Positions 1,049 to 50,342 are shown, counted from the first letter of the stretch. The stretch: 64,000 bases of DNA from an uncultured Acidobacteriota bacterium (GCA_963780895.1 CAWAEG010000009.1:88025-152024); one strand, 5' to 3'. The notes: generated by a model not told the origin, from the sequence alone. Program-made: numbers and translations.

Positions 1049-1228
1049 GAGGCTCAAAGGCTCAAGGCCCAGAGCTCAAAGGCCGGCCCAAGATGCAAAC
1101 GATCGGAACACCTCGGATCCATTAGACAGACACGGAACGACATCAAACACCCGCGCCGGAGAGGCCGAGCATTCGGACTGACCCGAGACGATGCCTCCGG
1201 GCCTTTGAGCCCTGAGCCTCCGAGCCTC
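1049..1228. repeat. Hairpin element whose arms are degenerate 7-8-nt word repeats around a ~115-nt centre.
   Basis: Arm 1049-1084 (gaggctcaaaggctcaaggcccagagctcaaaggcc) is the approximate reverse complement of arm 1200-1228 (ggcctttgagccctgagcctccgagcctc). The element occupies the whole spacer upstream of osmC. Confidence 0.7.
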
Positions 1229-1253
1229 CCGAGCGCTTTTTCAGGAGCAAACC

Positions 1254-1694
1254 ATGCCAGCGTTTTCACGACACGCGACCGTTGATTGGAAGGGCACGCT
1301 GATGGAAGGAGGCGGCGAGCTCAAGGCCGGGACCGGGGCGTTCACGCTGCCGGTGTCGTTCCCGCGCCGGATCGGCGACCCGGAGGGCTGCACGAGCCCG
1401 GAGGAACTGATCGCGGCCGCGCACGCGACGTGCTACGCGATGGTCGTCGCCGGCGCGCTCGCGAAAGCCGGTGCTTCTACCAGGGGCACGAAGGTCACGT
1501 GCACCGTGACCGCCGACAAGAGCGACACCGGCATCAAGGTCATGACCTCGAAGCTCGACGTGGTCGCCGAAGGCCTGACCGGCATGGACGCTGCGACGTT
1601 CGAGAAAACCGCGAAGGAAGCCGAAGGACGCTGTCCCATATCGAACGCCCTAAGAGGAACGCTCGCGATTGAGGTGTTGGCGCGAGCGTCCTGA
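1254..1694 (+). CDS. osmC: OsmC family peroxiredoxin.
   Basis: 146-aa ORF with both conserved Cys contexts of the OsmC/Ohr fold (AAHATCYAM and AEGRCPISNAL). ATG at 1254, TGA at 1692-1694. Confidence 0.85.
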   Translation: MPAFSRHATVDWKGTLMEGGGELKAGTGAFTLPVSFPRRIGDPEGCTSPEELIAAAHATCYAMVVAGALAKAGASTRGTKVTCTVTADKSDTGIKVMTSKLDVVAEGLTGMDAATFEKTAKEAEGRCPISNALRGTLAIEVLARAS

Positions 1695-1703
1695 AAAACG
1701 GAG

Positions 1704-1859
1704 GTCGGTACGTCGGGTACATCAGGTACGCGGGTACGTCAGGTCCAAGGAACCTGATCCCCGTCAACTTCTTTGGTTTCATTCAAAGGAAGATGACTCC
1801 AACTCAGGTTCCAGGGACCCGACGTACCCGTCGTACCTGATGTACCCGTCGTACCCGAC
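1704..1859. repeat. Long imperfect inverted repeat. GGTACG-word hairpin family, copy 2.
   Basis: gtcggtacgtcgggtacatcaggtacgcgggtacgtcaggtcc... pairs with ...gggacccgacgtacccgtcgtacctgatgtacccgtcgtacccgac. It shares with copy 1 the words ggtacg / gggtccctggaac and the loop motif cttctt...aagatgac. Confidence 0.8.
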
Positions 1860-1872
1860 TCGCGCCAGCGCC

Positions 1873-2352
1873 TTAATGTGTTCGCGATCCCGCCGCCGTC
1901 GGCCGATGCGGCTCTGAAATCGCCGTCACCGTATTCGCCAGCAGCGTCACGGCTTCTTCACGCTGCCGGCCCGGCGTGTTGCGCGTCTGGCGCGCGACAT
2001 CGGCGAGCGACAGGATGCCGATGAGCGATCCGTCGTCGGTCACCACCGGCAGCCGGTGAATCTGTTTTTCCGCCATCACCCGTTCCGCCTGCACCACGTC
2101 ATCGTCGGCGACGCACGTGCAAACCTCGTGGGCCATCACGCCTGCGAGCGGGATGTCGCTGAGCGGCTGGTTCTGGAAATGCGCCGCCATGCAGAGGTCG
2201 CGGTCGGTGACGACGCCGACCACGCGGCCGTCGCCGTCCACGACCGGGACGATGCCGCAGTCGTGCTCCCACATGATCTGGGCCGCGGTGTTCGCGCGGT
2301 CCTGCAGGCGGCAGGTGTGAACAGGATGTGTCATGAGTTCGCTGACACGCAT
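1873..2352 (-). CDS. CBS-pair domain protein.
   Basis: 159-aa ORF with two CBS-like repeats (HDCGIVPVVDGDGRVVGVVTDRDL and IHRLPVVTDDGSLIGILSLADV). Confidence 0.8.
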   Translation of the reverse strand: MRVSELMTHPVHTCRLQDRANTAAQIMWEHDCGIVPVVDGDGRVVGVVTDRDLCMAAHFQNQPLSDIPLAGVMAHEVCTCVADDDVVQAERVMAEKQIHRLPVVTDDGSLIGILSLADVARQTRNTPGRQREEAVTLLANTVTAISEPHRPTAAGSRTH

Positions 2353-2509
2353 GTCGAGTTCCTTTCTTGGCCAGGCGGACGCGGCCGCAGGTCGCGGCGC
2401 ACGAGCAGCCTTGCGAGTTGAGGGGGGCCCAAGCCCACTCTATCAAGTCGCGCCGGCGATGGCGCGACGAGTTTGGCGGTTCGTCGGGCCGAACGGGCTG
2501 GCGGGTGGA

Positions 2510-2848
2510 TTAGCCGGGCGGCCAGGCGAGCGGTCTGCCGCCGAGGACGTGCAGGTGGATATGGAAGACGGTCTGGCCGGCTTCGGCGTTGCAGTTGAAG
2601 ACGGTCCGGTATCCACGATCGGCGTAGCCGCGTTCGGCGGCGATGGCCGCGGCGCGGCGGAGCATCTCGCCCGCCAGCGCGTCGTGGGATACGTTCAGAT
2701 CGTTCAGCGTCGGGATGTGCGTCTTGGGGACCACCAGGACGTGCATGGGCGCCTGCGGATTGATGTCGTTGAACGCAATCAACCGATCGTCTTCGAACAC
2801 CTTCGTCGCGGGGATTTCACCCGCGACGATTCGGCAGAACAGGCACAT
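2510..2848 (-). CDS. HIT family (histidine triad) nucleotide hydrolase/transferase.
   Basis: 112-aa ORF with the histidine triad HIHLHVLGG and the N-terminal CLFCRI motif. Confidence 0.85.
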   Translation of the reverse strand: MCLFCRIVAGEIPATKVFEDDRLIAFNDINPQAPMHVLVVPKTHIPTLNDLNVSHDALAGEMLRRAAAIAAERGYADRGYRTVFNCNAEAGQTVFHIHLHVLGGRPLAWPPG

Positions 2849-2851
2849 GTC

Positions 2852-7928: not shown

Positions 7929-9662
7929 TTAGTACCAAGGGTCGTCTTCGCGAACCGCACCGCCCCAAATCATTCCGCCACCCCAAATCATTCCCCCGCC
8001 CCAAATCATCCCCTCGCCCGAAATCGACTTGCCGCCCCAAATCATGCCGTCGCCTGAGATGGCTTCGCCGCCCCAAATCATTCCGCCGCCCCAGATCATT
8101 CCGCCACCCCAGATCATCCCGCCGCCCCAGATCATCCCGCCGCCCCAGATCATTCCGCCACCCCAGATCATTCCGCCACCCCAGATCATTCCGTTGCTCC
8201 AGACTGATCCGTCGACGAAATACAATTGACCGGCGTGGACTTCTTCTCCTCCAATGACGTTCCACGGCTGGAGTTGGGTGCCCTTAGCCTGGACAAGTGC
8301 GGCAGCCAGCGCGACGTTCACACTGCCTGCGCCTTGTTCGGCCAGACCGTAACCAGGGACAAACTGGGCGGAGATCTGCAAGGCGAACTTGGCCTCGCGC
8401 GGAGTCAGCTTCGGTTGGGCTTGGAGGATCTGCGCCACTGCGCCAGAAACTACGGCCGCTGCCATGCTAGTTCCCGACAACTTGAGGTAGGTCCCACCGG
8501 CCGACCCGTACATCCGTCTCTGTGGGTGGTCCCGCCACAACGAACTGCTCTCTGAGATAGCGGCCACGATGGCGTTTCCAGGCGCTACAACGTCTGGCTT
8601 CATCTGCCATGATTCGGGCGAATCCGGCGATCCCACCGGCCCGCGCGAGCTGAACGTCGCCAGAATGTCATCCGATCGCTCGACCGTGCCGCGCGTATTC
8701 AGTGCGCCAACCGTGAGCGCTCCGGGCGTGTAACCTGGCGAAATAATCGCCCCCACGATCGGCGTGCCATCCTCGAGCTTGCCCAGATTGCCCGCCGACG
8801 CGACGACGACGAGCCCGGCGTCCACCGCCTGCTCGACGGCCTTCGCCATCGGGTCATCCATCGGTGACCCGGACGCGGGATGGCCGAGCGACAGGTTGAT
8901 GACGCGAATCTTGAATTTGTCCCTGTTGGCGATCGTCCACTCGATCGCCTCGAGCACGTCCGAGACGTACCCCGATCCGTCTTCGCCCAGGACCTTCAGG
9001 CTGATCAGGTGCGCGCCCGGCGCCATGCCGACGTACTCGCTGCCTTCGGCCGTCCGGCTGCCGGCGCCGCTGCCCGCGATGATGCTCGCGACGTGTGTGC
9101 CGTGCCCGTACGCGTCGGCTGCGTCAACTTGCTCGGCGTTGAGCTCGCCACGGAAATCGAGCGACAGCGCCAGCCGATTCGCCAGATCCGCGTGCCGTGC
9201 GATGCCCGAATCAATGACCGCGACGCCGATGCCCTTGCCCGTGATTCCGCTGAAGTTCCCCGACTTGCCGGCCGCCTTCCAGAGCTGGCTGGCGCCCGTC
9301 GACTGCGCCGTCACCCCGCTCATCCCGACGACGCGGTCGTCCTGCGAAAGCGCCGCGACCTTGGCGTCGAGCGCGAGCAAACGGATTTGATCCGCCGACC
9401 CGCTCAGGACGGCTCCCGACCCGAGACGCTTCTCGACCCGCACCCGGTACGTCGCGGCCAGACGGTTCACCTCCGCCTGGGGCCCTTCGTACACGACATC
9501 CAGCCGGGCGGCGCCCGCCGCAAGCTGGTGCTCGAGCCCTCGTGAGAGCTTCGCCCGATGCTGTGCCGTGGCCGGTAGCGGTGCCGCAAGGATTCCCGCC
9601 ACCAGGCCGATAAACGTAATCAGCCGGGCGCGGTCGACCGTGGGGAACGGTAGGCGACTCAT
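7929..9662 (-). CDS. Secreted subtilisin-family (S8) serine protease with an I9-like propeptide and a C-terminal MIWGGG hexapeptide-repeat domain.
   Basis: Catalytic contexts VAVIDSGI (Asp), HGTHVASIIAG (His), VINLSLG (Asn) and SGTSMAAAVVSG (Ser). The signal-like start MSRLPFPTVDRARLITFIGLVAGILAAPLPATA begins at ATG 9662; the ORF track extends to 9713. Confidence 0.85.
   Translation of the reverse strand: MSRLPFPTVDRARLITFIGLVAGILAAPLPATAQHRAKLSRGLEHQLAAGAARLDVVYEGPQAEVNRLAATYRVRVEKRLGSGAVLSGSADQIRLLALDAKVAALSQDDRVVGMSGVTAQSTGASQLWKAAGKSGNFSGITGKGIGVAVIDSGIARHADLANRLALSLDFRGELNAEQVDAADAYGHGTHVASIIAGSGAGSRTAEGSEYVGMAPGAHLISLKVLGEDGSGYVSDVLEAIEWTIANRDKFKIRVINLSLGHPASGSPMDDPMAKAVEQAVDAGLVVVASAGNLGKLEDGTPIVGAIISPGYTPGALTVGALNTRGTVERSDDILATFSSRGPVGSPDSPESWQMKPDVVAPGNAIVAAISESSSLWRDHPQRRMYGSAGGTYLKLSGTSMAAAVVSGAVAQILQAQPKLTPREAKFALQISAQFVPGYGLAEQGAGSVNVALAAALVQAKGTQLQPWNVIGGEEVHAGQLYFVDGSVWSNGMIWGGGMIWGGGMIWGGGMIWGGGMIWGGGMIWGGGMIWGGEAISGDGMIWGGKSISGEGMIWGGGMIWGGGMIWGGAVREDDPWY
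7959..8199 (-). repeat. Tandem 18-bp coding repeat (about 13-14 units) encoding (G)MIWGG(G).
   Basis: Plus-strand units ccgccNccccaRatcatN recur head to tail. The translation has 12 MIWGG(G) units plus two variants (EAISGD, KSISGE), all in frame within the protease. Confidence 0.9.
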
Positions 9663-9864
9663 TTTATGCGTCCTGAACGCTAAAGACACCGAAGTGGGAG
9701 AACCGCGCGCCACTTACGAGCATGTACTGTACCAACGAATCTGTATTACAAAGCTTGGATTTCCGCTTAGTTCTTGAGCAGAAACCACTTGGAGCCTGCC
9801 TGATCACCGACAAATCCGGAAGTTTGATCACAAAACCGAAAGCCGAATCACGGACTTGGAATTC

Positions 9865-22194: not shown

Positions 22195-22265
22195 GGCCAA
22201 AGGCCAAAGCCGGAGAGCGTTACCCGCCTTCAATTACCCAATTACCCGAATTACCCGATTACCCG
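22195..22265. repeat. Two short tandem word tracts (ggccaaa x2; attacccN x4).
   Basis: ggccaaaggccaaagcc at 22195-22211 and ttacccgccttcaattacccaattacccgaattacccgattacccg at 22220-22265. The second ends at the ATG of the next gene. Confidence 0.75.
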
Positions 22266-23406
22266 ATGTCGTTCCCCCTCACCGGTGTCCGCGTCCTGGA
22301 TCTCACTCGTCTCGTCCCGGGCGCCTTTGCGACGTTGATGCTCGCGGAGATGGGCGCGGAGGTGATCAAGGTCGAAGATCCCGCGGGGCGGGGATCCGAT
22401 GCGCCATTTCCCGCCTTTGCTCGACGGGCGTGGCGTCTACGATTTGCTGCTCAACCGCGGGAAGAAGAGCGTCGCGCTCGATTTGCGCGCCCCCGACAGC
22501 GCAGGCGTTCTCGATCGATTGGTCGCGCGTGCGGACATCGTCGTCGAGAGCTTCCGGCCGGCGACGGCGAAGCGGCTCGGCGTGTCGGCGGAGCAGATGC
22601 GCGCCCGGCATCCGCGGCTGATTCATTGCTCCATCACGGGGTACGGGCAAACGGGTCCCTACGCGGACCGGCCGGGTCACGATCTGAACTACGTCGCCCT
22701 GTCGGGTGTGCTCGGGCTGGATCAGCCACAGCCGGCGACGCTCCCGAGGATGTTTCTGGCGGACGTCGGCGGCGGAGCCATGAGCTCCGTTGTCGGGATC
22801 CTCGCGGCGCTTTACGGGCGCGAGCGGACCGGCGAAGGCGCGTCCATCGATCTGTCCATGCACGAGGCGGCGCTGTACTGGCTCATGCTGCCCGCCGCCC
22901 GCGAGCTGCTCGACCAGGGAGCGCGCGCGACGGGGGAGTTGCCCGTCTTCGGGGCCCACGCCTGCTACAACGTCTACGAGACGCGCGACGGAAGACACGT
23001 GGCGCTCGGCGCGCTCGAGCCGAAGTTCTGGAGCGCGTTCTGCTGTGCGCTCGGGCGCGAGGATCTGCTGTCCAGGCAGCTCACCGAAGGTGACGATCAG
23101 GCCGAGGTCATCGCCGAAGTCCGGCGGACGTTCGTCACCCGCACCCGCGACGAGTGGGTCGCGTTCTTCGAGGGCCATGACGTCGCGCTGACACCGGTCA
23201 ACGGGCCGGCTGAGGCCCTGGCCGATCCACATGTCACCGCGCGCGGGACGGTGGTACGCGGCCGGGACCTTCGCGCCGTTCGACCTCCGTTCGCGCGGGC
23301 CGTGGCCGATCTTTGCCCGGCGCCCGCGCTCGGTGAACACACGGAGGAGGTGCTTCAGGGCTGCTACAATGGCCTGTTGGGCTCAGGGCTGGAAGAGGCC
23401 ACATAA
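22266..23406 (+). pseudogene. Family III CoA-transferase (CaiB/BaiF-like). Frame break at ~22386-22389.
   Basis: The sequence starts [41 protein letters not shown] and then continues in the next frame as (G)[31 protein letters not shown]...[21 protein letters not shown]. There is one extra base in the run gcggggcgggg. Confidence 0.8.
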
Positions 23407-23411: not shown

Positions 23412-26303
<2,892 letters not shown>

Positions 26304-28736: not shown

Positions 28737-28793
28737 AAGACCTCGGGTTTCGTTTTTTTGAGCCTGACGACCAAAAACGAAACCCGAGGTCTT
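28737..28793. repeat. ACCTCGGGTTTC hairpin family, copy 2 (perfect 21-bp stem).
   Basis: aagacctcgggtttcgttttt - ttgagcctgacgacc - aaaaacgaaacccgaggtctt, in the divergent sigma/lysA spacer. Confidence 0.85.
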
Positions 28794-31350: not shown

Positions 31351-31470
31351 GCGGGCTCGTCAGTGCAAACGCAGGGCCAGCGTGATGCGGCGCAAGAAAA
31401 CCGCTTTCACGCGGACGTACGCAAATTCTCAAGTGTCGCCACCGCGTGCGGGTGGCGATTTCTTCGATGT

Positions 31471-31543
31471 CCTGGGCCTTCCAGCCTTGGGCGTTGTGCC
31501 TTGTGCCTTGGGCCTTCGGCCCTCGGCCTATGGCCTTCGGCCT
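31471..31543. repeat. Heptamer tandem tract (gtgcctt / gggcctt / cggccct / tggcctt).
   Basis: Ten or so consecutive degenerate 7-nt units read by eye, between the rsfS stop and the comF start. Confidence 0.7.
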
Positions 31544-31555
31544 GACGGCCGACTC

Positions 31556-32569: not shown

Positions 32570-33643
<1,074 letters not shown>

Positions 33644-33649
33644 TCGTGC

Positions 33650-34353: not shown

Positions 34354-34410
34354 CACCTCGGGTTTCCTTTTCCTGGTGGTGCTCTTCGGAGGAAAAGGAA
34401 ACCCGAGGTG
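34354..34410. repeat. ACCTCGGGTTTC hairpin family, copy 3.
   Basis: cacctcgggtttcctttt - loop - aaaaggaaacccgaggtg, upstream of rplU. A second small hairpin, ctcagttc-N8-gaactgag, follows at 34414-34437. Confidence 0.8.
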
Positions 34411-36872: not shown

Positions 36873-36908
36873 CGCGTCTGGTATGGGTACTAAGAGCACG
36901 TGCAACGT

Positions 36909-37003
36909 GGAACTCAAAACTGAGAACTGAGGACTCTGCAACACTTGCCCGACGTGGGAGCATGCTCTAAGTTCTGAGTTCCAGGTTCTGAGTTCTGAGT
37001 TTC
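36909..37003. repeat. Heptamer-word hairpin (gaactca/gaactga arms) just upstream of topA.
   Basis: Left arm ggaactcaaaactgagaactgaggactc pairs with right arm aagttctgagttccaggttctgagttctgagtttc across a ~32-nt loop. Confidence 0.75.
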
Positions 37004-37032
37004 AACGACAGGGCTCCAGACAAAGGAGAGAT

Positions 37033-39483
37033 GTGGCAAAGGTACTCGTGGTCGTCGAATCGCCGGCGAAGGCGAAGACGATCAACAAATATCTCGGACG
37101 CGACTACAAAGTCATCGCGTCGATGGGCCATGTCCGCGACCTGCCCAAGAGCAAGCTCGGCGTCGACGTGGACGCCGGTTTCGAACCGGAATACGTCGTC
37201 CTTCCCGACCGCGTGAAGGTCATCAAGGAGCTCAAGGACGCGGCGAAGAGCGCCACCGACATCTACGTCGCGACCGACCCTGATCGCGAAGGCGAAGCGA
37301 TCGGCTGGCATCTGTCCGAGGAGCTCGGCGCGGCGCGCAAGAAAGTGCGCCGTCTGATGTTCAACGAGATCACGAAGAAGGCGATCCTCGAGGCGATCAA
37401 GCACCCGGGCGAGATCGACATGAAGATGGTCGACGCGCAGCAGGCGCGGCGCGTGCTCGATCGCCTGGTCGGCTACAAAATCAGCCCCATCCTCTGGGAC
37501 AAGGTGCGTCGCGGCCTCAGCGCGGGCCGCGTCCAGTCGGTCGCGCTCAAGCTCATCTGCGATCGCGAGCGCGAGATCGAAGCGTTCGTGCCCGAGGAGT
37601 ACTGGCACGTCTTCGCGCGACTGGCCGCCGACGAGCCGCCGGAGTTCGACGCGAAGCTCGTCAAGAAGGGCGAGAGCGCCGTCAAAGTCACGAACGACGC
37701 CGAGGCGCAGGCCATCCTGTCGGATCTGTCGGCGGCGACGTTCGTGGTCTCGTCGGTGACGATGAAAGAGCGGAAGAAGCACGCCGTTCCGCCGTTCATC
37801 ACCAGCAAGCTGCAGCAGGCGGCCCGTTTTCCAGTGAAGAAAACGATGATGGTCGCGCAGCAGCTCTACGAAGGCATCGAGCTGCCGGGCGAAGATGCGG
37901 CCGTCGGGTTGATCACGTACATGCGCACCGACTCCGTGCGCGTCGCGGACCAGGCGCTCGACGAGGTTCGCGGGTTCATCGGCGCGCAGTTCGGCGACGC
38001 CTACGTGCCGGAGCAGGCGAACCGCTACCGCGTGAAAGCCACGGCGCAGGACGCGCACGAAGCCATTCGCCCGACGTCGATGAAATATCACCCGGACGAG
38101 GTGCGCGCGCAGCTCACGCCCGACCAGTACTACCTGTACCGGCTGATCTGGAACCGGTTCGTCGCGTCGCAGATGACGCCCGCCACGTTCGACGACACGA
38201 CGGTCGACATCGCCGCCGGCGACTATCTCTTCCGCGCGAAGGGATCCGTGCCGAAGTTCGCAGGCTGGCTTGCCGTGTACGGCCAGGCCACGACCGAGGC
38301 CGAGGAGAGCGAGCGCACCGAGCAGCCGCTGCAGCCCCCCGCGGGACAGACCGATCAGGACGATGAGCCGTCGAGCGCGATTCTGCCGCCGATGCGCGAG
38401 GGACAGATTCTCGACGTCAAGGCCATCCGGCCTGAACAGAAGTTCACGCAGCCACCGGCGCGCTACAGCGAAGCGACGCTCGTGAAAGCGCTCGAAGAAG
38501 ACGGGATCGGCCGCCCCAGCACGTATGCGTCGATCATCTCGGTGCTGCAGGCGCGCGATTACGTGAACAAGGTCGAGAGCCGGTTCCGCCCGACGATCCT
38601 CGGCCGGCGGCTCGTCGATAAGCTGCTGCACCCCGCGTTCGACGACATCCTCGACGTCGAGTACACGGCGAAGATGGAGGAGCAGCTCGACGAGATCGAA
38701 AAGGGCAGGGCGGACTACAAGGAAACGCTCGCCGCGTTCTACCAGAAGTTCAAGAAGGACCTGAAGCGCGCGAGCAAGGAAATGCCGAACTTCAAGGAAG
38801 GGCAGCCGCTCGACCCGCCCATGCCCTGCGACAAGTGCGGGCAGGGTGAGATGGTGGAGAAGGCCGGCCGGTTCGGCATCTTCCTGGCCTGCAGCCGGTA
38901 TCCGGAGTGCGACAACACGAAGGAGCTCGAGACGGCCGAGACGTCCACCGAGGAGCTCGACGAGACGTGCGAGAACTGCGGGCGGCCGATGGTCGTCAAG
39001 CGCGGCCGCTTCGGCATGTTCCTCGCCTGCACCGGGTATCCCGAGTGCAAGACGACCAGAAAGATCATCTCGACGAAGCAGGGCGTCAAAGCCGCGCAGC
39101 CCGATCAGGTGCTCGACGAGACCTGCCCGAACTGCGGCAAGAACCTCGTCGTGAAGCACGGCCGCTTCGGCGAGTTCACGGCGTGCACGGGCTACCCCGA
39201 GTGCAAATACGTGAAGCTGAAATCGACCGGCGTGATCTGCCCGAAAGACGGTGGCGACATCGTCGAACGCAAGTCGCGCCGCGGGAAAGTGTTCTACGGC
39301 TGCGCCAACTATCCGAAGTGCGACTTCACCCTCTGGAACAAGCCCATCGCCGAGCCGTGCCCCAAATGCGGGTGGAAGTTCCTCACGGAAAAGATCACCA
39401 AGCGCTACGGCCGGCAGCTCATCTGCGCCAACGAGGCGTGCGACTACGTGCGGGCGGAGGAGCTGGCGACGGCGGAGGCGTGA
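37033..39483 (+). CDS. topA: DNA topoisomerase I.
   Basis: 816-aa intact ORF with GTG start after the RBS aaggagag. Toprim motifs VVVESPAKAKTI and DPDREGE, active-site region ITYMRTDS, and four C-terminal Cys4 ribbons. Confidence 0.95.
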   Translation: MAKVLVVVESPAKAKTINKYLGRDYKVIASMGHVRDLPKSKLGVDVDAGFEPEYVVLPDRVKVIKELKDAAKSATDIYVATDPDREGEAIGWHLSEELGAARKKVRRLMFNEITKKAILEAIKHPGEIDMKMVDAQQARRVLDRLVGYKISPILWDKVRRGLSAGRVQSVALKLICDREREIEAFVPEEYWHVFARLAADEPPEFDAKLVKKGESAVKVTNDAEAQAILSDLSAATFVVSSVTMKERKKHAVPPFITSKLQQAARFPVKKTMMVAQQLYEGIELPGEDAAVGLITYMRTDSVRVADQALDEVRGFIGAQFGDAYVPEQANRYRVKATAQDAHEAIRPTSMKYHPDEVRAQLTPDQYYLYRLIWNRFVASQMTPATFDDTTVDIAAGDYLFRAKGSVPKFAGWLAVYGQATTEAEESERTEQPLQPPAGQTDQDDEPSSAILPPMREGQILDVKAIRPEQKFTQPPARYSEATLVKALEEDGIGRPSTYASIISVLQARDYVNKVESRFRPTILGRRLVDKLLHPAFDDILDVEYTAKMEEQLDEIEKGRADYKETLAAFYQKFKKDLKRASKEMPNFKEGQPLDPPMPCDKCGQGEMVEKAGRFGIFLACSRYPECDNTKELETAETSTEELDETCENCGRPMVVKRGRFGMFLACTGYPECKTTRKIISTKQGVKAAQPDQVLDETCPNCGKNLVVKHGRFGEFTACTGYPECKYVKLKSTGVICPKDGGDIVERKSRRGKVFYGCANYPKCDFTLWNKPIAEPCPKCGWKFLTEKITKRYGRQLICANEACDYVRAEELATAEA

Positions 39484-39495
39484 GAGGCTCGCGAC

Positions 39496-39530
39496 AGGCC
39501 GAAGGCCTTGGGCCTTTAGCCTTGGGCCTG
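39496..39530. repeat. Heptamer tract (aggccga aggcctt gggcctt tagcctt gggcct) after the topA stop.
   Basis: Read by eye. It contains short self-complementary GGCC cores and may act as a terminator, but no T-run follows. Confidence 0.6.
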
Positions 39531-39555
39531 GACACCATCCCTGTATCATCATCTC

Positions 39556-41062: not shown

Positions 41063-42085
41063 ATGTCAGCGCGAGACGCCGTTCAGGATCAGACGAGAAA
41101 CTTCCTGTCGTTTCTCCGCTTCAACCGGAACGTGTCTCCTCATACGCTGCGGGCCTACGAGACCGACCTCGCCCAGCTCGTCGATCACCTGGCCGGTCGC
41201 GACGGGTGCCCGCCGAGCGCGGTGACGCTCGCGCGGTTCGACGTGGACGGCGTGCGGGGGTTTCTCGAAGAGCTGCACGACCGCGGCAACAGCCGATCGT
41301 CGTCGGCGCGCCGGCTGGCGGCGTGCCGCACCTTTGCCCGGTACCTCATTCGCGAAGAGCTGATCGAGGACGACCCGACTGCGCTCGTCGGCGCGCCGCG
41401 AAAAGATCAGACGCTGCCTTCGCATCTGCCTGCCGACGACATGGAGCGGCTGCTGGCGGAGCCCGACACGGACACCGTCGGCGGCCGCCGCGATCGCGCG
41501 ATTCTGGAGCTGTTTTACGCCTCCGGTCTGCGTCTCAGCGAGCTGGTCGGGCTCGACCTCGAAGACACCAATCTTTCGAGCCGCGTCGTTCGCGTGCGCG
41601 GGAAGGGCGGCAAGGAGCGGCTGGTGCCCTTCAACAGGTCCGCCACCGACGCCATCCGCTCGATGCTGGCGGATGGGAAGGGCAAAGGGCAAAGGGCAGA
41701 GGGCAGAGGAGAGGGGAAAGGGACGAGGGAAAAGGGGAGGTTCGGACCGGGCGCGAGATTCAGCCGGCACGACCCGCGGCGCCAGCCGCTGTTCCTCAAT
41801 CTGCGCGGGCAGCGGTTGACGACCCGAAGCGTCGATCGCATCGTGCGGCGGTATGTGAAGCAGGCTGCGCTCACCGGCGCGATCAGCCCCCATGCACTGC
41901 GCCACACGTTCGCGACACATCTGCTGCAGGCCGGCGCCGATCTGCGTGCGATTCAGGAGCTGCTCGGCCATGCGCGGCTCAGCACCACGCAGCGCTACAC
42001 CCACCTCGACGTCGGACGACTGATGGAGGTCTACAAGAACGCGCACCCGCGGGCCCGGCGTTCATCGCGGCCAAGACCTGATTGA
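41063..42085 (+). CDS. xerC: Tyrosine recombinase XerC/XerD family.
   Basis: LSPHTLRAYETDL, LRLSELVGL, VRGKGGKERLVP, HALRHTFATHLL, LGHARLSTTQRYTHL. Confidence 0.9.
   Translation: MSARDAVQDQTRNFLSFLRFNRNVSPHTLRAYETDLAQLVDHLAGRDGCPPSAVTLARFDVDGVRGFLEELHDRGNSRSSSARRLAACRTFARYLIREELIEDDPTALVGAPRKDQTLPSHLPADDMERLLAEPDTDTVGGRRDRAILELFYASGLRLSELVGLDLEDTNLSSRVVRVRGKGGKERLVPFNRSATDAIRSMLADGKGKGQRAEGRGEGKGTREKGRFGPGARFSRHDPRRQPLFLNLRGQRLTTRSVDRIVRRYVKQAALTGAISPHALRHTFATHLLQAGADLRAIQELLGHARLSTTQRYTHLDVGRLMEVYKNAHPRARRSSRPRPD
41675..41740. repeat. Purine-rich heptamer tract (aagggca x3, gagggca, degenerating) in frame inside xerC.
   Basis: gggaagggcaaagggcaaagggcagagggcagaggagaggggaaaggg... encodes GKGKGQRAEGRGEGKGTREKG, in a loop that is variable in the family. 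Confidence 0.75.
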
Positions 42086-42109: not shown

Positions 42110-43822
42110 ATGCGGCGTTCACCGTTCGCGCTGATCCGCAAGGTCGTGTTCCTGGCGATCGATGCGACTCTGCTTGCGCTCGTCGTCGGAATTCTGTTGA
42201 TTGTTCTCACCGGCGGCGCCGATTTCACGATCGCAGGCGTGCCCGTCAGCGTGCACTCGGCCGGAAACCCGGTCGCCATCGCACTCGCACTCGGCGCCCT
42301 TCGATACGCGGTCCGGCGACAGGCGCCGTTCCTCGGGCTTCGGCGCTTTCCACTGGACCAGGTCGATCGCGCGAGCGCACACGCGCTCGTCGCCATCACC
42401 CGCACCCTGGAGGGTCTCTCGAGGGATCAGGTCCGTCTTTTCGTGACGGCGTGCAGCCTGGCGGTCTTTGGAGTGAAGGTTGCCAACGCCATCGTGCATC
42501 CCGGATTCGTCACTGGTGACGACGTCGAAGTGCACGAAATGACGCTCGGCCGGCTGTTCGGTGAATCGTGGCTGGTGTGGGAGTTGCGGAGCGCGTTCTA
42601 CCCGATGACGTTCATCTACCCGGTCCAGGCGGCGCTGGCGGCGCTCGGGATCGAGGACTCGCGCACGTTGATCGTCGCTGGGCGTCTGGTGGTCGCCGCG
42701 CTCTCGACACTCGCGCTGCCGCTGTTGTTTCTGGCCGCGCGGCCGCACGGGACGGGTGTGGCACTGGTGAGCGTATTGTTCGCTGCAACGAGCGCGCTGC
42801 TGGTCGATTACGGCGGCACGGAGCTGCCGAGACCCGTTTCGACTGTGTTTGTGCTCGGCGCCTTCGTCTGCCTGGCGCGATCGACAACGTCGCGATCGGT
42901 GGCCGGGGGGGGATTGTTGGGTCTGGCGGCGGCGATGCGGTTCAGCGAGGCGCTTTTCGTCGTCCCCGCGATCGCGCAGCTCGCCATCGCGCGCCGATTC
43001 GGGGATGTCGCGCTCATGACCGTCGCGTGGTGTGTGGCCGCTGGCGCAATCCAGGGCGCGAGTGACTGGCTCTACTGGGGGACGCCCTTCTACAGCGCTC
43101 AACACATCGTGGACTTCACGCTGGTCCAGGGCTTGTCTTCACGTGGCTACGAGCCGCCCTGGCATTACCTGACGCACGTCACGTCCTGGACCAATTATCT
43201 GGTCTTCTTCCTCGCGCTTTGGGCGACGGCCCTGGGACACTGGCGAATTGCGGTCTGGGCCTGGATTCCACTTGGCCTGCTGTCGCTGTTCCCGCACAAA
43301 GAGGCGCGATACGTGATTCCGCTCGTGCCGTTCGTATGCCTGCTGGCGGCATTGGGATTATGGAAGTGCGTCGTGCTCATCCGAGATGAGCCGGTCGGAC
43401 CGAACGGATTCGGTGCTGTTCTTGCCGTCGGGCTGATCCTGGCATTGGCGGGTTCGGTCCTGGTCGAGGGCGCACGATTTCATGTCCGCCGGACCGACAA
43501 CGAGGCGCGGTTTGCGCTGGCGCTCGCCGCCGATGCCACGGTGAAAGTGCTGGCGATTGAACGATCGTGGCGGACAGGCGGACCGCTCTACCTCAAGGAT
43601 ATTCCGGCGCTGAGGATCCTGGACTCCGAGACGTTGTACCTGTACGCCTACGTGTCGCCGGATGCCTTGAACCAACCCGCCGCGGATACGGTCGCGATTA
43701 CGAAGAACACGTGCCGGCTGGCAGGATGCGACGAGCGTCTGCGCCTGGCGGGGTTCGTTGAAACGAGCACGCCGTTCAGCGCCGCGGCGAACTATCGGGT
43801 CTTCAGGCGCTCGGGGCCGTGA
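42110..43822 (+). CDS. GT-C fold membrane glycosyltransferase (Alg9/GT22-like mannosyltransferase family).
   Basis: 570-aa polytopic ORF with an acidic loop motif GDDVEVHE near the first loops and a FPHKEARYVIP motif resembling the HKEERF signature of GT22 enzymes. Confidence 0.5.
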   Translation: MRRSPFALIRKVVFLAIDATLLALVVGILLIVLTGGADFTIAGVPVSVHSAGNPVAIALALGALRYAVRRQAPFLGLRRFPLDQVDRASAHALVAITRTLEGLSRDQVRLFVTACSLAVFGVKVANAIVHPGFVTGDDVEVHEMTLGRLFGESWLVWELRSAFYPMTFIYPVQAALAALGIEDSRTLIVAGRLVVAALSTLALPLLFLAARPHGTGVALVSVLFAATSALLVDYGGTELPRPVSTVFVLGAFVCLARSTTSRSVAGGGLLGLAAAMRFSEALFVVPAIAQLAIARRFGDVALMTVAWCVAAGAIQGASDWLYWGTPFYSAQHIVDFTLVQGLSSRGYEPPWHYLTHVTSWTNYLVFFLALWATALGHWRIAVWAWIPLGLLSLFPHKEARYVIPLVPFVCLLAALGLWKCVVLIRDEPVGPNGFGAVLAVGLILALAGSVLVEGARFHVRRTDNEARFALALAADATVKVLAIERSWRTGGPLYLKDIPALRILDSETLYLYAYVSPDALNQPAADTVAITKNTCRLAGCDERLRLAGFVETSTPFSAAANYRVFRRSGP

Positions 43823-45324: not shown

Positions 45325-45327
45325 TGC

Positions 45328-46512: not shown

Positions 46513-46634
46513 CGTTTAGTCTCCCGTTCGGGCGACCAGCTATAAGGCAAGGGCCGTACCCGGACGAATGGGCCTTTTACACACGAAAACTGTGAGTAAG
46601 GCGCTCGGAGACTACGTTCGTGGGGTCCAATGAT

Positions 46635-46676
46635 TACAGAACGGGTGCCGACTTACAAACTTGTAACAGTTCTGTA
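46635..46676. other. Nested palindrome directly after the ABC-F stop, in an AT-rich spacer.
   Basis: Outer arms are tacagaac ... gttctgta. The inner perfect palindrome is ttacaa-ac-ttgtaa (46653-46666). Confidence 0.5.
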
Positions 46677-46679
46677 CTA

Positions 46680-48764
46680 TTACTCTGAGACCTCCTGTGT
46701 TTGCAGTGCTTCCCACTGATTCATGAGGTCTCCGACCTCCCACATCAGGGCCTGGTGTCGGGTCACTGACGCTTCGGCCTGCTCGCGCGCGTCGTAAAAG
46801 CCCGGCTCAGCCATCTTCGCTTCGAGCTCGCGGATTTCGCTTTCCCGCGCGGCGATCCGCTCTTCGAGCTCGGCAATGCGGCGGGCCCGGTCATCGGCCG
46901 CCCGCTTTCGACGGCGATGTTCGGAGTCCGCCTTCTTTTTTTCTTCATAGGAGACTGGTGGTTGGTCCTGCCGAACGGCGGGCCGCTCGGCATGACGCCT
47001 TGCCGGCTGGCCGGGTCGCTGGGTCTCCCGGTTCCCGCCGATCGGGCGTGCCGTCCCCCTGGCTTCCCGTGTGCGGAGCTCGCGGGTTCCCAAGCCCGCG
47101 GCCGGTCCGGGCTCTTTCACCGTGACGCCGGCGGATGGCCCTGAGCTGTCAGTTTCCTGACGTCGCGCCCGGCTCCAGAGGAACTCCTCGTAGGTTCCTG
47201 GATAAACCTCGAGGGTCTCGTGACCGACCTCGATGATTTTGGTCGCGAGCTTGTCCACGAAGTAGCGGTCGTGCGACACGAAGATCAGCGTCCCGCCAAA
47301 GTCGTCGAGGGCGTCGAGCAGCACGTCCTTGGAATCGAGGTCGAGGTGGTTCGTCGGCTCGTCGAGGAGCAGGGTGTTCGCCGGACGGAGGAGCATGCGC
47401 GCGACCGCGAGCCGCGTGCGCTCGCCGCCCGAGAGGACGCCCGCGCGCTTGTAGATGTCGTCGCCCGAGAACAGGAACCCGCCGAGGATATTGCGGATCA
47501 TCGGCACCATGCCGACTGGCGAGTCGGCCTGCATGATCTCGTAGACGGTGCGGCCGGGCTCCAGGCGGGTCGCTTCGTCCTGCGCGAAGTACTGCATCAC
47601 GACCTGGTGGCCTTCGCGGCGCGCGCCTTCGTCCGGCGGTTCGACGCCGGCGAGCAGCCGCATCAGCGTGGACTTGCCGGCGCCGTTTGGCGCCACGAGC
47701 GCGATGCGATCGCCCCGCTCGACGTGAAGCCGGATGTCGTCGAGCACGACGTTCGTGCCATAGGCCTTGCGCACGCCTTCGAGCTCGATGACGGTCCGGC
47801 CGCTCTTCGGGCACGACGGAAACGTGAAGCGCACCCGCTTCCGCTCGGCTGGCACCTCGATCGGCACGACGCGGTCGAGCATCTTGATCCGGCTCTGTAC
47901 TTGCGCGGCTTTGGTCGCCTGGTAGCGAAACCGATCGATGAAGGCCTTCATGCGCGCGACTTGTTCGTCCTGCTCCTTCTTCGCCTGCCGGAGCCGTTCG
48001 AGCCTTGCGTCGCGCTCCACGAGGTACTGCGAATACGTGCCCGTGTAGTCCGTAATCGTCCGCAGCGAGATCTCGGCGATGCGCGTGACGACCGAGTCGA
48101 GGAAAAACCGGTCGTGCGAGACGAGGATCACGGCGTGCGGATAGGACGAGAGGTACCCCTCGAGCCAGTTCCGGGCGTCGAGGTCGAGATGGTTGGTCGG
48201 CTCGTCGAGCAGGAGCAGCGTCGGGCGGCCGAGCAGCAGCTTGGCGAGCGCGATGCGCATCTGCCAGCCGCCCGAAAACGTCTCGGTCGGTTTCGTGAAG
48301 TCCGCTTTGCCGAATCCGAGGCCGGCGAGCACCTGCGTCACGCGCAGGTCGATGCTGTGGCCGTCCTCACGCCGGAAGAAATCCGTGAGCTCGTGATACC
48401 GGACGAGGAGCGTCTCGTGTTCGCCCTCGGGGAGCGACGGGTCGGCGAGGTCGTGCTCGATTCGATCGATCTCGGTTTTGGCCTCGAGGAGCGGCGCGAA
48501 GGCGAGCGACGCCTCGTCGAACAGCGTGCGTCCGGAATGGTCGAGCCCGTCCTGCGGCAGATAGCCGACGGTGAGCGCCGCGGGGCGGATGATCGCGCCG
48601 CGGTCCGGCTGGTCGAGGCCGGCGAGCATGCGGAGCAGCGTCGTCTTGCCGGCGCCGTTGGGACCGGCGAGCCCGACGCGTTCGCCGCTGGTGACCTGCC
48701 ACGTCACCTCGTCGAGCAGGACCCGTTCCCCGAAGGCCTTCGTGAGGGCCTGAAGCTGGATCAA
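46680..48764 (-). CDS. ABC-F family ATPase (translation-factor type, Uup/EttA-like) with a long basic linker and coiled-coil tail.
   Basis: Two ABC modules (GPNGAGKTT, APNGAGKST), signatures FSGGWQMR and LSGGERTR, no TM domain. TTG start (MIQLQALTKAFG). Confidence 0.85.
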   Translation of the reverse strand: MIQLQALTKAFGERVLLDEVTWQVTSGERVGLAGPNGAGKTTLLRMLAGLDQPDRGAIIRPAALTVGYLPQDGLDHSGRTLFDEASLAFAPLLEAKTEIDRIEHDLADPSLPEGEHETLLVRYHELTDFFRREDGHSIDLRVTQVLAGLGFGKADFTKPTETFSGGWQMRIALAKLLLGRPTLLLLDEPTNHLDLDARNWLEGYLSSYPHAVILVSHDRFFLDSVVTRIAEISLRTITDYTGTYSQYLVERDARLERLRQAKKEQDEQVARMKAFIDRFRYQATKAAQVQSRIKMLDRVVPIEVPAERKRVRFTFPSCPKSGRTVIELEGVRKAYGTNVVLDDIRLHVERGDRIALVAPNGAGKSTLMRLLAGVEPPDEGARREGHQVVMQYFAQDEATRLEPGRTVYEIMQADSPVGMVPMIRNILGGFLFSGDDIYKRAGVLSGGERTRLAVARMLLRPANTLLLDEPTNHLDLDSKDVLLDALDDFGGTLIFVSHDRYFVDKLATKIIEVGHETLEVYPGTYEEFLWSRARRQETDSSGPSAGVTVKEPGPAAGLGTRELRTREARGTARPIGGNRETQRPGQPARRHAERPAVRQDQPPVSYEEKKKADSEHRRRKRAADDRARRIAELEERIAARESEIRELEAKMAEPGFYDAREQAEASVTRHQALMWEVGDLMNQWEALQTQEVSE

Positions 48765-48820
48765 ATGACCTCTGAGGTCATTTTATGAGAAGGAGAAAAA
48801 ATGACCTCAGAGGTCTTCTC
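48763..48820. repeat. ATGACCTCnGAGGTC double-palindrome element, copy 1.
   Basis: aaatgacctctgaggtcatttt - atgagaaggag - aaaaaatgacctcagaggtcttctc. It spans the whole spacer from the regulator stop (48819-48821) to the ABC-F TTG (48764). Confidence 0.85.
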
Positions 48821-49382
48821 AGACCGCCGCGGGTTCCCCGAGCGCACGCGCGGCGACAGCCAACACGCGCTCCATGCGGAACGGCTTGGTCAGATATCCG
48901 GACACCCCGAGGTTGATCGCTTCGATCGCACTGGCTTCCGTCGAGTAGGCCGTGATGATGATGATCGGCAGATCGGGGAAGTGCCGGCGCGTTTCGCGGA
49001 TCACCGAGAGGCCGTCCATGCCAGGCATCTTGAGATCCGTGATGAGCAGGTCGAACGGGCTGGTCGGCTGACTCGTCTGCAGGCGCTCGAGCGCCGTCGG
49101 GCCGTCTTCAGCTGTTTCCACGTCGTAGTCGGCGGTGGCGAGGTATTTCGAGACGAGATCGCGAACGGCCTGTTCGTCGTCGACCACGAGAACGCGCGGG
49201 CGCTCGCCGATCTTGCGATGTCCAGTCAGCCAGGCGTCGATGTCGCGCTTGCGGAACCGCCATTGCCGCCCGACACGGACCGCCGGAATCTTGCCGGCCT
49301 TGATCAATCGATAGATCGTGCGGAGATTGATATGGAGGTAGTCGAGCAGTTCGTCGGTGGTGAGGTAATGGTCGGCGTTCAT
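48819..49382 (-). CDS. Response regulator with an N-terminal excisionase/MerR-type HTH and a C-terminal receiver domain.
   Basis: HTH LTTDELLDYLHINLRTIYRLIKAGKIPAVRVGRQWRF, then REC RVLVVDDEQAVR...LLITDLKMPGMDG...YLTKPF. Confidence 0.8.
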   Translation of the reverse strand: MNADHYLTTDELLDYLHINLRTIYRLIKAGKIPAVRVGRQWRFRKRDIDAWLTGHRKIGERPRVLVVDDEQAVRDLVSKYLATADYDVETAEDGPTALERLQTSQPTSPFDLLITDLKMPGMDGLSVIRETRRHFPDLPIIIITAYSTEASAIEAINLGVSGYLTKPFRMERVLAVAARALGEPAAV

Positions 49383-49614
49383 ACCGATGAGGCGACCAGA
49401 CCCCCGCCAGTCCGGAGCCGGTGCCGCAGTCTAACACGCCGATTTCCCCGCTGGACCCCGGCGCCGCGTGCCGGCGTGGCCGGGCCGTGAGCGACACCGT
49501 ATACTGCAGATCTGGGCGTAATTATGTGGCGTACCGACTGGCCGACTTCACAGGCCGTCTAATCTGCAGAGCGCGCGATGGGTCGACGAGCGGGTCGCGC
49601 GGTCAGGCGCGTCA

Positions 49615-50223
49615 ATGACCCCGACGGATGAGGAACTCGTTGCCCGCGCCTCCGCGGGCGACCTGGAAAGCTTCAACCAGCTCGTTACACGCTGGGAGAG
49701 GCCGATCTATGCTCTGGCGTACCGGACGCTGGGTCGTGAAGAAGACGCTCGCGATGTCGTGCAGGAAGCCTTCCTCCGGGCCTACCGCGGCCTTCGCGGG
49801 TTCAAGGGACAGGCGAAGTTCTCGTCATGGCTGTATCGGATCACGCTGAACCTCTGCCGCGACTGGATCCGGCGCGAGCGGCGTGCGCCGCTCGTTCAGG
49901 TGCCGGAAGGCACCGATCCGGTGGAACTGGCCGATGAGCGGGTCGCGCCGACTGAATCGGTCGAGGAGCTCGTCGCACGACGCGAGCTGTCAGAGGCGGT
50001 CGCGCTGGCGATGGCCGAGCTGCCGGAGGAACAGCGCACGGCGATCATGTTGAAGGAGTACCACGGCCTGACGTTTCAGGAGATTGCGGACATGCTCGAC
50101 TGTCCGCTCAGCACCGTGAAGACGCGTCTCTATCAGGGGCTCTCTGTTCTGCGTCGCCGACTGGAGCGGAGGCAGGCGGAGGCGGCGAGCCTGAGACGCG
50201 CGACGTGGGAAAGCAGTACATGA
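49615..50223 (+). CDS. ECF-type sigma-70 family factor.
   Basis: Region 2 is DVVQEAFLRAYRGLRGFKGQAKFSSWLYRITLNLCRDW and region 4 is TFQEIADMLDCPLSTVKTRLYQG. Confidence 0.85.
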   Translation: MTPTDEELVARASAGDLESFNQLVTRWERPIYALAYRTLGREEDARDVVQEAFLRAYRGLRGFKGQAKFSSWLYRITLNLCRDWIRRERRAPLVQVPEGTDPVELADERVAPTESVEELVARRELSEAVALAMAELPEEQRTAIMLKEYHGLTFQEIADMLDCPLSTVKTRLYQGLSVLRRRLERRQAEAASLRRATWESST

Positions 50224-50342
50224 AACTTAGAACTTCAAACTTCAAACTTCGAACTTCGAACGACAGACCCGGGACGTCGAAATCGGCGTTCATGTGACCG
50301 GGTTCGAAAGTTCGAAGTTTGACGTTCGGAGTTCGAAGTTTC
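50222..50342. repeat. ~120-nt heptamer-word hairpin (gaacttc / gaagttc arms) between the sigma and anti-sigma genes.
   Basis: Left arm gaaacttagaacttcaaacttcaaacttcgaacttcgaac pairs with right arm gttcgaaagttcgaagtttgacgttcggagttcgaagtttc. The inner stem continues (acccgg/ccgggt). Confidence 0.8.

Follow-up and report, generated by a model that had tools for sequence, protein, structure and literature searches.

A stretch of 64,000 nucleotides (nt) of DNA from an uncultured Acidobacteriota bacterium (GCA_963780895.1, CAWAEG010000009.1:88025-152024), referred to here in its entirety as the window, contains intergenic tandem runs of 7-nt words, some of them followed by a run of the reverse-complement word such that the two runs are predicted to pair as the arms of a hairpin beginning at or just past an upstream stop codon. 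The source is placed in the Vicinamibacterales (Acidobacteriota), as its best TopA relatives are metagenome-assembled genomes of that order (90% identity for locus L001) and a metagenome contig (99% for L081), and in these and more distant relatives the same architecture occurs with different words at the same sites. We interpret the elements as hypermutable heptanucleotide microsatellites, of the class of the short tandemly repeated repetitive (STRR) elements and long simple sequence repeats (LSSRs), which turn over in place and often build stem-loops after genes, with operon punctuation as their most likely role; this is an interpretation in which we have slightly more confidence than doubt.

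The 7-nt periodicity was identified by scanning for self-matches in 21-nt windows, with cut-offs of at least 18/21 or at least 15/21 and with 30 dinucleotide shuffles as control. At the stricter cut-off the window has five tracts at lag 7, none at lags 4-6 and 9-11, and one each at lags 8 and 12, with approximately zero in the shuffles; at the looser one there are nine tracts at lag 7 as compared with 1.2 in the shuffles. Relatives were represented by the TopA neighbourhoods of 80 species (1.5 Mb in ~22-kb loci, L001-L080) and by an independent 0.62 Mb of metagenome loci (L081-L160), ~2.1 Mb in total, all of which are TopA neighbourhoods, so that orthologous sites are counted repeatedly. The first set contains 159 tracts at lag 7 and between 1 and 36 at each of the other lags from 4 to 13, lag 14 behaving as a harmonic, and the metagenome loci contain 51 at lag 7 versus at most 23 at any other lag. 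An assembly artefact was considered and rejected because the pattern recurs in ~100 independent assemblies, complete chromosomes among them.

These tracts are strongly concentrated in spacers. Lag-7 density is 872 per Mb in non-coding DNA versus 41 per Mb in coding DNA (1.56 Mb), a roughly 20-fold difference, whereas for the other lags, multiples of three excepted, the values are 5-120 per Mb in non-coding and 4-8 per Mb in coding DNA; coding and non-coding counts, and the start-codon distances given below, are approximate because the gene models are rough and self-trained, with some coding calls and start codons uncertain. Enrichment in spacers and stable folding were the two points on which an earlier reading made from the sequence alone (the sequence-only reading) had staked its case beforehand, and the enrichment is clear. 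Within spacers a tract comprises 4-11 units of a 7-nt word, with a GC content of 54% as compared with 63% for spacers, in a group of genomes with 62-70% GC. The density is very patchy (0-14 tracts per 22 kb), with a peak in a clade at ~70% TopA identity and a minimum in the Thermoanaerobaculia; in some Vicinamibacterales genomes one third to two thirds of the spacers of at least 40 nt hold a tract, and tracts make up 8-19% of spacer bases.

The words themselves are highly diverse, with 106 word classes among 230 tracts. The suggestion that they differ from locus to locus is thus correct as to the many unrelated words, but it needs qualifying in that each genome has a dominant word family; in the window this is AAGGCY(N), which is found, as such or as its complement, at five of the nine loci. 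The (A/G)GGGATT class has 14 exact matches, and 59 of the 230 tracts lie within one mismatch of it. We note that it provides the dominant word in the clade at ~70% TopA identity (L022-L030, L041, L049-L051 and L063). NAACTGA-like words are present at window position 36909 and in L030 and L049. No purine or G/C strand bias relative to transcription was seen over the tracts as a whole.

All of the elements listed in the sequence-only reading were recovered where it put them or no more than a few bases away, and the three that it described as inverted pairs illustrate the two-armed form. Between the genes for an ECF sigma factor (49615-50223) and a zf-HC2 anti-sigma factor, a left arm of (GAACTTC/AAACTTC)n at 50217-50269 overlaps the TGA stop codon of the sigma factor gene, and a right arm of (GAAGTTC)n at 50302-50342 ends 10 nt before the ATG (50353) of the anti-sigma gene; the arms are 89% complementary over 35 nt (50222/50308), and Tandem Repeats Finder (TRF) reports period 7 in both, with 5.6 copies at 50223-50261 and 5.4 at 50302-50340. 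Between dprA and topA, the left arm (36904-36940) consists of GAACTCA, AAACTGA, GAACTGA and GGACTCT and the right arm (36966-37005) of five units of TCTGAGT that stop 27 nt short of the GTG of topA at 37033, with 86% complementarity over 22 nt (36904/36966) and TRF arrays of period 7 at 36910-36935 (3.7 copies) and 36966-37001 (5.1 copies). The third element, at 1049-1234, is flanked by a TM198-like gene (412-1044) and an OsmC-like gene starting at 1254. Its left arm (1049-1084) begins 4 nt past the TM198-like stop codon and is built of AAGGCTC/AAGGCCC-type units of 7-8 nt; a centre of 108 nt of unique sequence (1085-1192) separates it from a right arm (1193-1234) of GAGCCTN units with a period of ~8, followed by TTTTT at 1236-1240. 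Complementarity here is 73-90% (1049-1084/1195-1220), and TRF gives period 7 with 4.5 copies at 1050-1083 and period 8 with 5.2 copies at 1193-1234, so that the element is two-armed as proposed, but its units are of 7-8 nt with indels and not strictly of 7 nt.

The predicted RNA folds of all three are markedly more stable than expected, at -60.3 kcal/mol for 50215-50345 (z -6.86), -41.1 kcal/mol for 36900-37010 (z -3.05) and -79.2 kcal/mol for the plus strand of 1040-1245 (z -4.0), and in no case did a shuffled sequence equal the observed value; the second of the two tests named beforehand, with z of -3 to -7, therefore also came out as the sequence-only reading had predicted. The arms and loops of the three hairpins are mutually unrelated, and the one-armed tracts of the window are unremarkable on folding (z -1.2 to -2.5). 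No member of a known RNA family accounts for these elements, as Rfam at gathering thresholds has no match in the window, where tRNA and tmRNA are likewise not found.

Pairing of tracts in inverted orientation is a general feature of the related loci. Adjacent tracts carry reverse-complement words (with at most one mismatch) in 23 of 42 pairs and the same word in 7 of 42, with gaps of 0-135 nt between the inverted partners, whereas only 6.5% of distant pairs at the same locus are inverted. In a sensitive search, 65 of the 230 tracts (~28%) had a complementary partner no more than 220 nt away versus 12 in a reversed-sequence control, as did 17 of 69 tracts in the metagenome loci versus 2; with partners at such distances, a pair forms a hairpin of 60-200 nt. 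A typical hairpin is ~94 nt long with a median loop of 24 nt, and stems at one site contain 20-51 pairs. Complementarity is 86% in the best register and still 73% after a shift of 7 nt, from which we conclude only that several registers are available for pairing of the stems, because choosing the best register biases the comparison; for the same reason a mirror order of variant units in the two arms was dropped as evidence. One-armed tracts could be either precursors of hairpins or hairpins that have decayed.

Hairpins are tightly anchored to the upstream gene. In co-oriented spacers they start a median of 3 nt after the stop codon, and within 16 nt of it in 28 of 34, the first heptamer unit often including the stop codon itself; they end a median of 29 nt before the next start codon. 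One-armed tracts follow a looser version of the same post-stop trend, and tract density declines from 1.35 per kb in co-oriented spacers to 0.81 in convergent and 0.23 in divergent ones. The co-oriented spacers concerned in the window lie, by Pfam, between genes for TM198-like/OsmC-like proteins, a permease and a CoA-transferase III, dprA and topA, topA and trmFO, and the ECF sigma/zf-HC2 anti-sigma pair. Even where no tract is present, structure is somewhat stronger in the 70 nt that follow a stop codon than in the 70 nt leading up to a start codon (z below -2 in 15% versus 8%), and the proportion rises to 32% in spacers with tracts. Between rpmA and obg almost every spacer longer than 20 nt has some hairpin, whether built of heptamers or plain GC; that of the window is a short GAGAATCTGAAG / CTTCAGATTC hairpin (33617-33645, minus strand) with the same word as the multi-unit (GAATCTR)n hairpins found there in relatives. 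We also note that across the order CTCCC or CACCC stands in front of obg in place of a Shine-Dalgarno sequence (window 33597-33611), and that hairpins often end 1-9 nt before the obg start codon.

The heptamer hairpins sit in a post-gene slot in which relatives carry ordinary stem-loops, and because they fill that slot we suggest that, if transcribed, they most likely serve as operon punctuation, whether as a barrier to decay from the 3' end, as a substrate of RNase III, or as a terminator-like attenuator that lacks a U-tract. Our confidence in this role, which is judged from sequence and position, is modest. Gain or loss of units would then tune the length of the stem.

Comparison with related strains, which the sequence-only reading had recommended, reveals rapid turnover, with the same spacer holding different words or none and with arms that are complementary within each genome. 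The dprA-topA heptamer hairpin is confined to the window, L001 and the 99% strains L081 and L147, the spacer in most relatives being 18-60 nt long and usually containing a small GC hairpin. Its flanks are conserved; L001 differs from the window in its unit counts and throughout the loop, and the 99% strains have almost the window's own loop. The topA-trmFO spacer is only 0-20 nt long in some genomes and elsewhere holds tracts or hairpins of unrelated words (GGCCTTG; AGGGCAA/TTGCCCT; GAGCCNT; GGTTCTG/CAGAACC; CAGTCGT/ACTGACA; CACAAAG/CTTTGTG; AGGGATT; GAACCCC; GAAGT/ACTTC), and this spacer and that between rpmA and obg show at least eight unrelated words, or none, across relatives. At rpmA-obg, the hairpins of one clade are multi-unit and built of (GAATCTR)n, (GAAAGTR)n or (CAGTCGW)n, those of other genomes are of TTGGTGA type, of AAGGCTN type or plain GC, and genomes without any are very few; the mean complementarity of the two arms within a genome is 0.79, as compared with a mean identity of 0.51 between orthologous arms of different genomes.

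Changes at the finest scale are visible between the window and L081. The left arm of the topA hairpin is one 7-nt unit shorter in this 99% strain (indel at 36916), and substitutions amount to 8% in the left arm and 20% in the right arm as compared with 2-2.6% in the flanking genes, of which topA has 2%, and 0 of 31 positions in the adjacent spacer; a tract within the xerC-like gene is 24 nt longer in L081, in frame. Heptamer words at orthologous sites are thus shown to arise and to be replaced in place, as hypervariable microsatellites. The proposal of a generating process as opposed to descent from one sequence is borne out by these data, orthologous spacers being empty or filled with unrelated words and 99% strains differing by a single 7-nt unit.

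We propose that strand slippage would add and remove the 7-nt units and that intramolecular template switching, in the form of quasi-palindrome correction or fold-back copying, would create the second arm and keep the two arms matched; the quasi-palindrome mechanism is known from the genetics of Escherichia coli. Selection would then clear genes and divergent promoter spacers of tracts, leaving these in transcribed, promoter-free spacers and in tolerant protein loops.

A number of observations weigh against microsatellites that punctuate operons. Approximately 63% of tracts lack a partner, and the left arm of the topA hairpin is partly decayed in L081 in a manner that looks neutral. The elements do not qualify as intrinsic (Rho-independent) terminators: only 1 of 34 hairpins leads into a run of at least four T, loops have a median of 24 nt, and a consensus terminator scan did not call the heptamer hairpins although the window has canonical terminators. 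Mispairs on the sense strand are 40 G.U versus 43 A.C, with no G.U preference, and are uninformative as a signature of the RNA strand; sense RNA folds better than antisense in 25 of 34 hairpins, but the gap averages only 0.9 kcal/mol over sites that are not independent, and for the element at 1040-1245 the antisense fold is much the stronger (-104 versus -79 kcal/mol). Slippage and template switching are both read from the patterns, together they give no reason for a preference for 7 nt, and the gene models are rough, as noted above.

Some of these points are also what would be expected if the tracts were a pure mutational by-product without function, their position after stop codons reflecting only the lack of a constrained signal there. 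We regard this as possible, if on balance unlikely. The rapid decay and replacement between 99% strains agree with it, as do the absence of a G.U versus A.C asymmetry, the predominance of one-armed tracts, the patchy density among related genomes, the many relatives that have no tract in the same spacer and a gap of 0-20 nt instead, and the occurrence of tracts in protein loops. Such a by-product would not, however, be expected to leave the rpmA-obg spacer nearly always provided with some hairpin across the order, nor to show a mild sense-strand stability bias and the arm polarity described below; useless DNA, moreover, is usually deleted by bacteria. That the arms stay complementary as the words change also speaks against it, although template switching could achieve this without selection.

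The polarity concerns the order of the arms. The purine- or A-rich arm is 5' and the pyrimidine- or T-rich arm 3' in 34 of 40 hairpins from L001-L080 and the window, in approximately 17 versus 3 when orthologous sites are collapsed by eye, and in 8 versus 2 in the metagenome loci. A palindrome reads alike on both strands, and this polarity is therefore not a strand effect. The layout resembles that of bidirectional terminators, with an A-tract, a stem and a T-tract, a likeness that would not in itself establish the cause of the polarity.

Purine-arm-first polarity and concerted change of both arms would be the signature of a further possibility, to which we give only a small chance, namely that a structure-directed process and not plain slippage writes and rewrites heptamer-periodic palindromes directly after stop codons across the order. 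Operon punctuation would then be made by a mutational machine and not inherited, and the centres of the palindromes would double as sites of gain and loss of small genes. Such a process could be a form of hairpin repair, or could depend on transcription and RNase III in the manner of the hmw locus of Haemophilus influenzae, in whose 5' untranslated region (UTR) a transcribed (ATCTTTC)n run makes up one of the two arms of a long, imperfectly paired hairpin (PMC12721329). That hairpin is an RNase III substrate which sets expression and is required for changes in repeat number (PMC12721329). The hmw repeat is a single contingency locus in the 5'-UTR of a pathogen, with a G-rich stretch as right arm, whereas the elements reported here occupy many post-stop loci and have repeat runs in both arms; they are predicted hairpins, and their transcription would follow from their position between co-oriented genes.

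Sites acting at the DNA level, either as binding sites of nucleoid-associated or architectural proteins or as cruciforms involved in organising the chromosome or influencing replication and recombination, would account for palindromes that are the same on both strands, for mispairs without strand preference, for hairpins that are very stable as DNA (z -6 to -9 for some), and for a strain-level rearrangement breakpoint located exactly at a tract. There is a precedent in Geobacter metallireducens, in which paired sites on opposite strands at variable distance consist of five tandem heptamers (MTYCTGA) or three units of 8-9 nt, some pairs lying within one operon (proB-proA) and four-heptamer elements lying inside genes (Aklujkar et al. 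2009, PMC2700814). Those sites have one consensus per class, were found by BLAST as a multicopy family and have been read as sites for IHF or HU (PMC2700814). The opposite-strand pairing of heptamer runs is alike in the two systems, but here the words vary by locus and by genome, with different words at the same orthologous site in place of a single consensus, and the common denominator is the ability to form a hairpin. With words that vary in this way a sequence-specific protein is unlikely; the topA hairpin, furthermore, is weak as DNA (z -1.3) and stable as RNA, others being stable both ways, and a strong association with stop codons, together with scarcity in divergent spacers, points to the transcription unit. 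DNA-level function is thus improbable in our judgement, and transcribed stem-loops remain the preferred reading.

The rearrangement breakpoint is at topA-trmFO. In L134, another 99% strain, an (AGGCCCA)n tract and a perfect 32-nt inverted copy flank 650 nt between these genes (L134 1661-2376), a segment that holds a minus-strand gene for a secreted protein of ~185 residues with no Pfam match. In L081 (3666-4244) the gene is present and the left arm has been lost, and in the window (39495-39532) the gene is absent and the two arms are fused at a GGCC microhomology. The window sequence comprises AGGCCGAAGG fused to CCTTGGG, CCTTTAG, CCTTGGG and CCTGG (TRF 39504-39529, period 7, 3.7 copies) and may be taken as a one-armed tract or as a collapsed palindrome; the sequence-only reading had listed 39496-39530 as one-armed, and while the tract is certainly there, its resolution into AGGCCGAAGG / CCTTGGGCCT favours the collapsed palindrome. 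Such a junction agrees with deletion by slippage across a hairpin's base, and at the centre of the palindrome a gene may have been captured. A second difference from L081 nearby involves an open reading frame (ORF) at 42110-43822 for an Alg9/GT22-like membrane glycosyltransferase (570 aa), absent from L081, where xerC joins the downstream terminator region; no repeat was found at the junctions of this presence/absence difference.

Perfect inverted copies around a gene segment that is missing from the window would also be compatible with small mobile elements, or boundaries of mobile cassettes, that have the heptamer arms as terminal inverted repeats, and the dominant word family of each genome and the presence and absence of elements between relatives lend this some credence. 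It seems to us very unlikely all the same, as arm lengths and words vary continuously, changes come in single 7-nt units, and the GGCC microhomology of the window junction is what slippage deletion predicts. A miniature inverted-repeat transposable element (MITE) or transposon was specifically rejected for the insertion upstream of topA, whose junctions have no direct repeat of the kind left by target-site duplication, whose loop is wholly different in the window and L001, and which shows neither a shared core nor a transposase nearby.

Among mobile sequences, the repetitive extragenic palindromic (REP) sequences and bacterial interspersed mosaic elements (BIMEs) of enterobacteria and pseudomonads are the closest in position, being imperfect palindromes in transcribed post-stop spacers, often as inverted pairs. 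REP elements stabilise upstream mRNA and attenuate read-through, and form one conserved family per genome, mobilised by REP-associated tyrosine transposases (RAYTs). The post-stop palindromes reported here are similar in location, but they have no common sequence, are made of tandem units and change in 7-nt steps; the three window hairpins, unrelated in arms and loops, yield no conserved palindromic consensus.

The analogy drawn by the sequence-only reading with the STRR sequences of heterocystous cyanobacteria holds. Both systems have tandem 7-nt units, many dispersed and mostly intergenic copies, and a few dominant words per genome, and the excess at lag 7 recurs in 250 kb sampled from a plasmid of Nostoc PCC 7120, with 11 tracts of which six form three inverted pairs, one pair starting at a stop codon. 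The differences lie in the phylum and in the frequent, here quantified, two-armed post-stop form. The apparent likeness of the vocabularies, judged by eye, was dropped, in that only one of 11 word classes is shared with the Nostoc plasmid, the exception being (A/G)GGGATT (the GGGGATT class). No tract matches exactly the words that we take to be those of STRR1-3. STRR units can also enter structured RNA, Vioque being said to have found in 1997 that they lengthen helix P12 of cyanobacterial RNase P RNA.

Heptamer repeats are also familiar from high-GC bacteria, and the implied novelty of such elements in GC-rich soil-type genomes does not stand, given their documentation in Xanthomonas, Burkholderia and Actinobacteria, the paired sites of G. 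metallireducens and the hairpin arm in H. influenzae. As summarised in two later papers, the LSSR survey of Mrazek et al. (2007) found heptamers to be the most abundant among units of 5-11 nt, with LSSR-rich genomes being large, high-GC and non-pathogenic, including Burkholderia, Xanthomonas and Actinobacteria, and proposed slippage with a polymerase footprint of ~7 nt as the cause (PMC4679880, PMC4692102). The present tracts behave as LSSRs in exceeding the run lengths predicted by composition (5 to 9 window tracts versus 0 to 1.2 in shuffles) and in varying in copy number between close strains (7-nt and 24-nt indels relative to L081). Inverted pairing, stop-codon position and orthologous word turnover are not addressed in the survey as those papers summarise it, and Acidobacteria are not listed there as repeat-rich. 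Our literature search found no report of such repeats in Vicinamibacteria or Acidobacteria, and the additions made here to the known heptamer repeats are a new phylum, a clean two-armed and stop-anchored form, and comparative word turnover with matched arms.

Two further groups of repeats bear on the one-armed tracts. The GGGNATC and GGGGA(C/T)T heptamer repeats of Xanthomonas and Nostoc are formers of G-quadruplexes (G4), and like the present tracts they are enriched in spacers, prefer co-oriented gene pairs, avoid divergent pairs and genes, and have few units per tract (PMC4692102). No complementary arms are described for them (PMC4692102), and the window words AAGGCCN, GAACTNN and GAACTTC lack any run of at least three G, a feature found only in relatives that carry (A/G)GGGATT. 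It is conceivable that one-armed tracts regulate the adjacent gene, either as RNA or DNA sites of a periodic binder such as S1, Csp, CsrA or Rho or as repeats that form G4, along the lines proposed for TAACTGA and GGGNATC repeats: (A/G)GGGATT, the commonest class in one clade, is the G4-forming class of Nostoc, its one-armed tracts place the C-rich strand on the sense strand in 21 cases versus 8, the bias among spacer classes is the same as in Xanthomonas, and some tracts adjoin start codons that have no Shine-Dalgarno sequence. We nonetheless consider it highly improbable, in view of the absence of G-runs from the window's own words, a word diversity that speaks against a single binder, and the two-armed form and joint change of arms that it leaves unexplained. 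The other group is the TAACTGA direct repeats of marine Beggiatoaceae, cyanobacteria and Bacteroidetes, intergenic runs near the boundaries of coding sequences and occasionally inside genes, some of which lie directly before start codons without a Shine-Dalgarno sequence and which comprise 169 direct sets and one indirect (PMC4679880). They consist of one fixed word upstream of starts, whereas the tracts reported here use many words, are often inverted and are anchored to the stop codon of the gene upstream.

The remaining tracts of the window are one-armed or lie within genes. The region 22195-22265 had been taken as a single heptamer tract; it does contain tandem words, but they form two unrelated short tracts, GGCCAAA x2 at 22195-22209 (plus strand), 8 nt after the stop codon of an amino-acid permease gene, and four copies of a unit with a period of 8-9, AATTACCCG or AATTACCC(G), at 22232-22266 (plus strand), directly abutting the ATG of a CoA-transferase III gene that has no Shine-Dalgarno sequence. 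We note that the frame of this gene (22266-23406) shifts somewhere before 23093, with a second frame open from 22366 to 23406, which may represent a frameshift, a pseudogene or an assembly error. The one-armed tract described at 31471-31543 is confirmed as (GCCTTGG)n with 8.6 units at 31480-31544 (TRF 31484-31543, period 7, 8.6 copies), in a convergent spacer 12 nt past the stop codon of rsfS (minus strand) and preceded by a terminator-like hairpin at 31440-31470. Two in-gene tracts had been missed: an in-frame (GGCCNAA)n tract at 24483-24529 (plus strand; TRF period 7 at 24494-24522) encodes a low-complexity loop of uvrA, and an in-frame (AAGGGCA/GAGGGCA)n tract at 41671-41740 (plus strand; TRF period 7 at 41678-41738) encodes GKGKGQRAEGRGEGKG in the xerC-like recombinase gene. 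The XerC loop concerned (window 41600-41845), between GKGGKER..PF and LFLN.RG, is 57-60 residues long in Thermoanaerobaculia and is hypervariable, of low complexity and 64-95 residues long in all Vicinamibacterales (orthologues in L001-L160), with GQRAEG(K/R)G peptides derived from (AGGGCAR)n recurring in distant clades.

Also missed were two palindromes with much stronger folds. A long near-perfect palindrome at 181-400 has arms that hold GGTACGNCN words of 8-9 nt (-162 kcal/mol, z -18), and a second palindrome of GGTACGNCN words follows the OsmC-like gene at 1700-1860, with a TRF period of 9 in both arms (-113 kcal/mol, z -13). With palindromes built of 8-9-nt words, a unit of 7 nt is therefore not a strict requirement of the architecture. 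The two flank the TM198-like/OsmC pair and have sequence motifs in common. A separate family of small perfect-stem palindromes with a common ACCTCGGGTTTC or GACCTC(C/T)GAGGTC is found at 28737-28793, 34354-34410, 61614-61662 and 48803-48815; the 57-nt copy at 34354-34410 is precisely missing from the 99% strain L147, and such a precise absence suggests that ACCTCGGGTTTC-type palindromes are a small mobile palindromic element. Other repeats are coding: an ORF of 594 residues at 7929-9713 (minus strand) has 13 copies of an 18-nt repeat (7960-8193) encoding a C-terminal (GMIWGG)n, and a 9/18/36-nt repeat (CGAACCGGA) at 55047-55132 lies inside ORFs on both strands (e.g. 54255-55226, minus, and 54751-55152, plus) and is probably a low-complexity repeat within coding sequence.

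Vicinamibacterales are among the most abundant of soil bacteria and are almost unstudied genetically, and tracts of this kind will affect gene calling, operon prediction, strain typing, short-read assembly and binning in them. The orthologous spacers constitute natural replicates, with one spacer in many genomes holding different words with matched arms, for the old question of why 7-nt units dominate long bacterial microsatellites, and the system allows a test of whether the dependence of repeat change on an RNA hairpin in Haemophilus is general. If the elements are indeed length-tunable stem-loops, they would provide these bacteria with a cheap and fast-evolving means of resetting relative expression within operons, as for example at the hairpin between the ECF sigma and anti-sigma factor genes.

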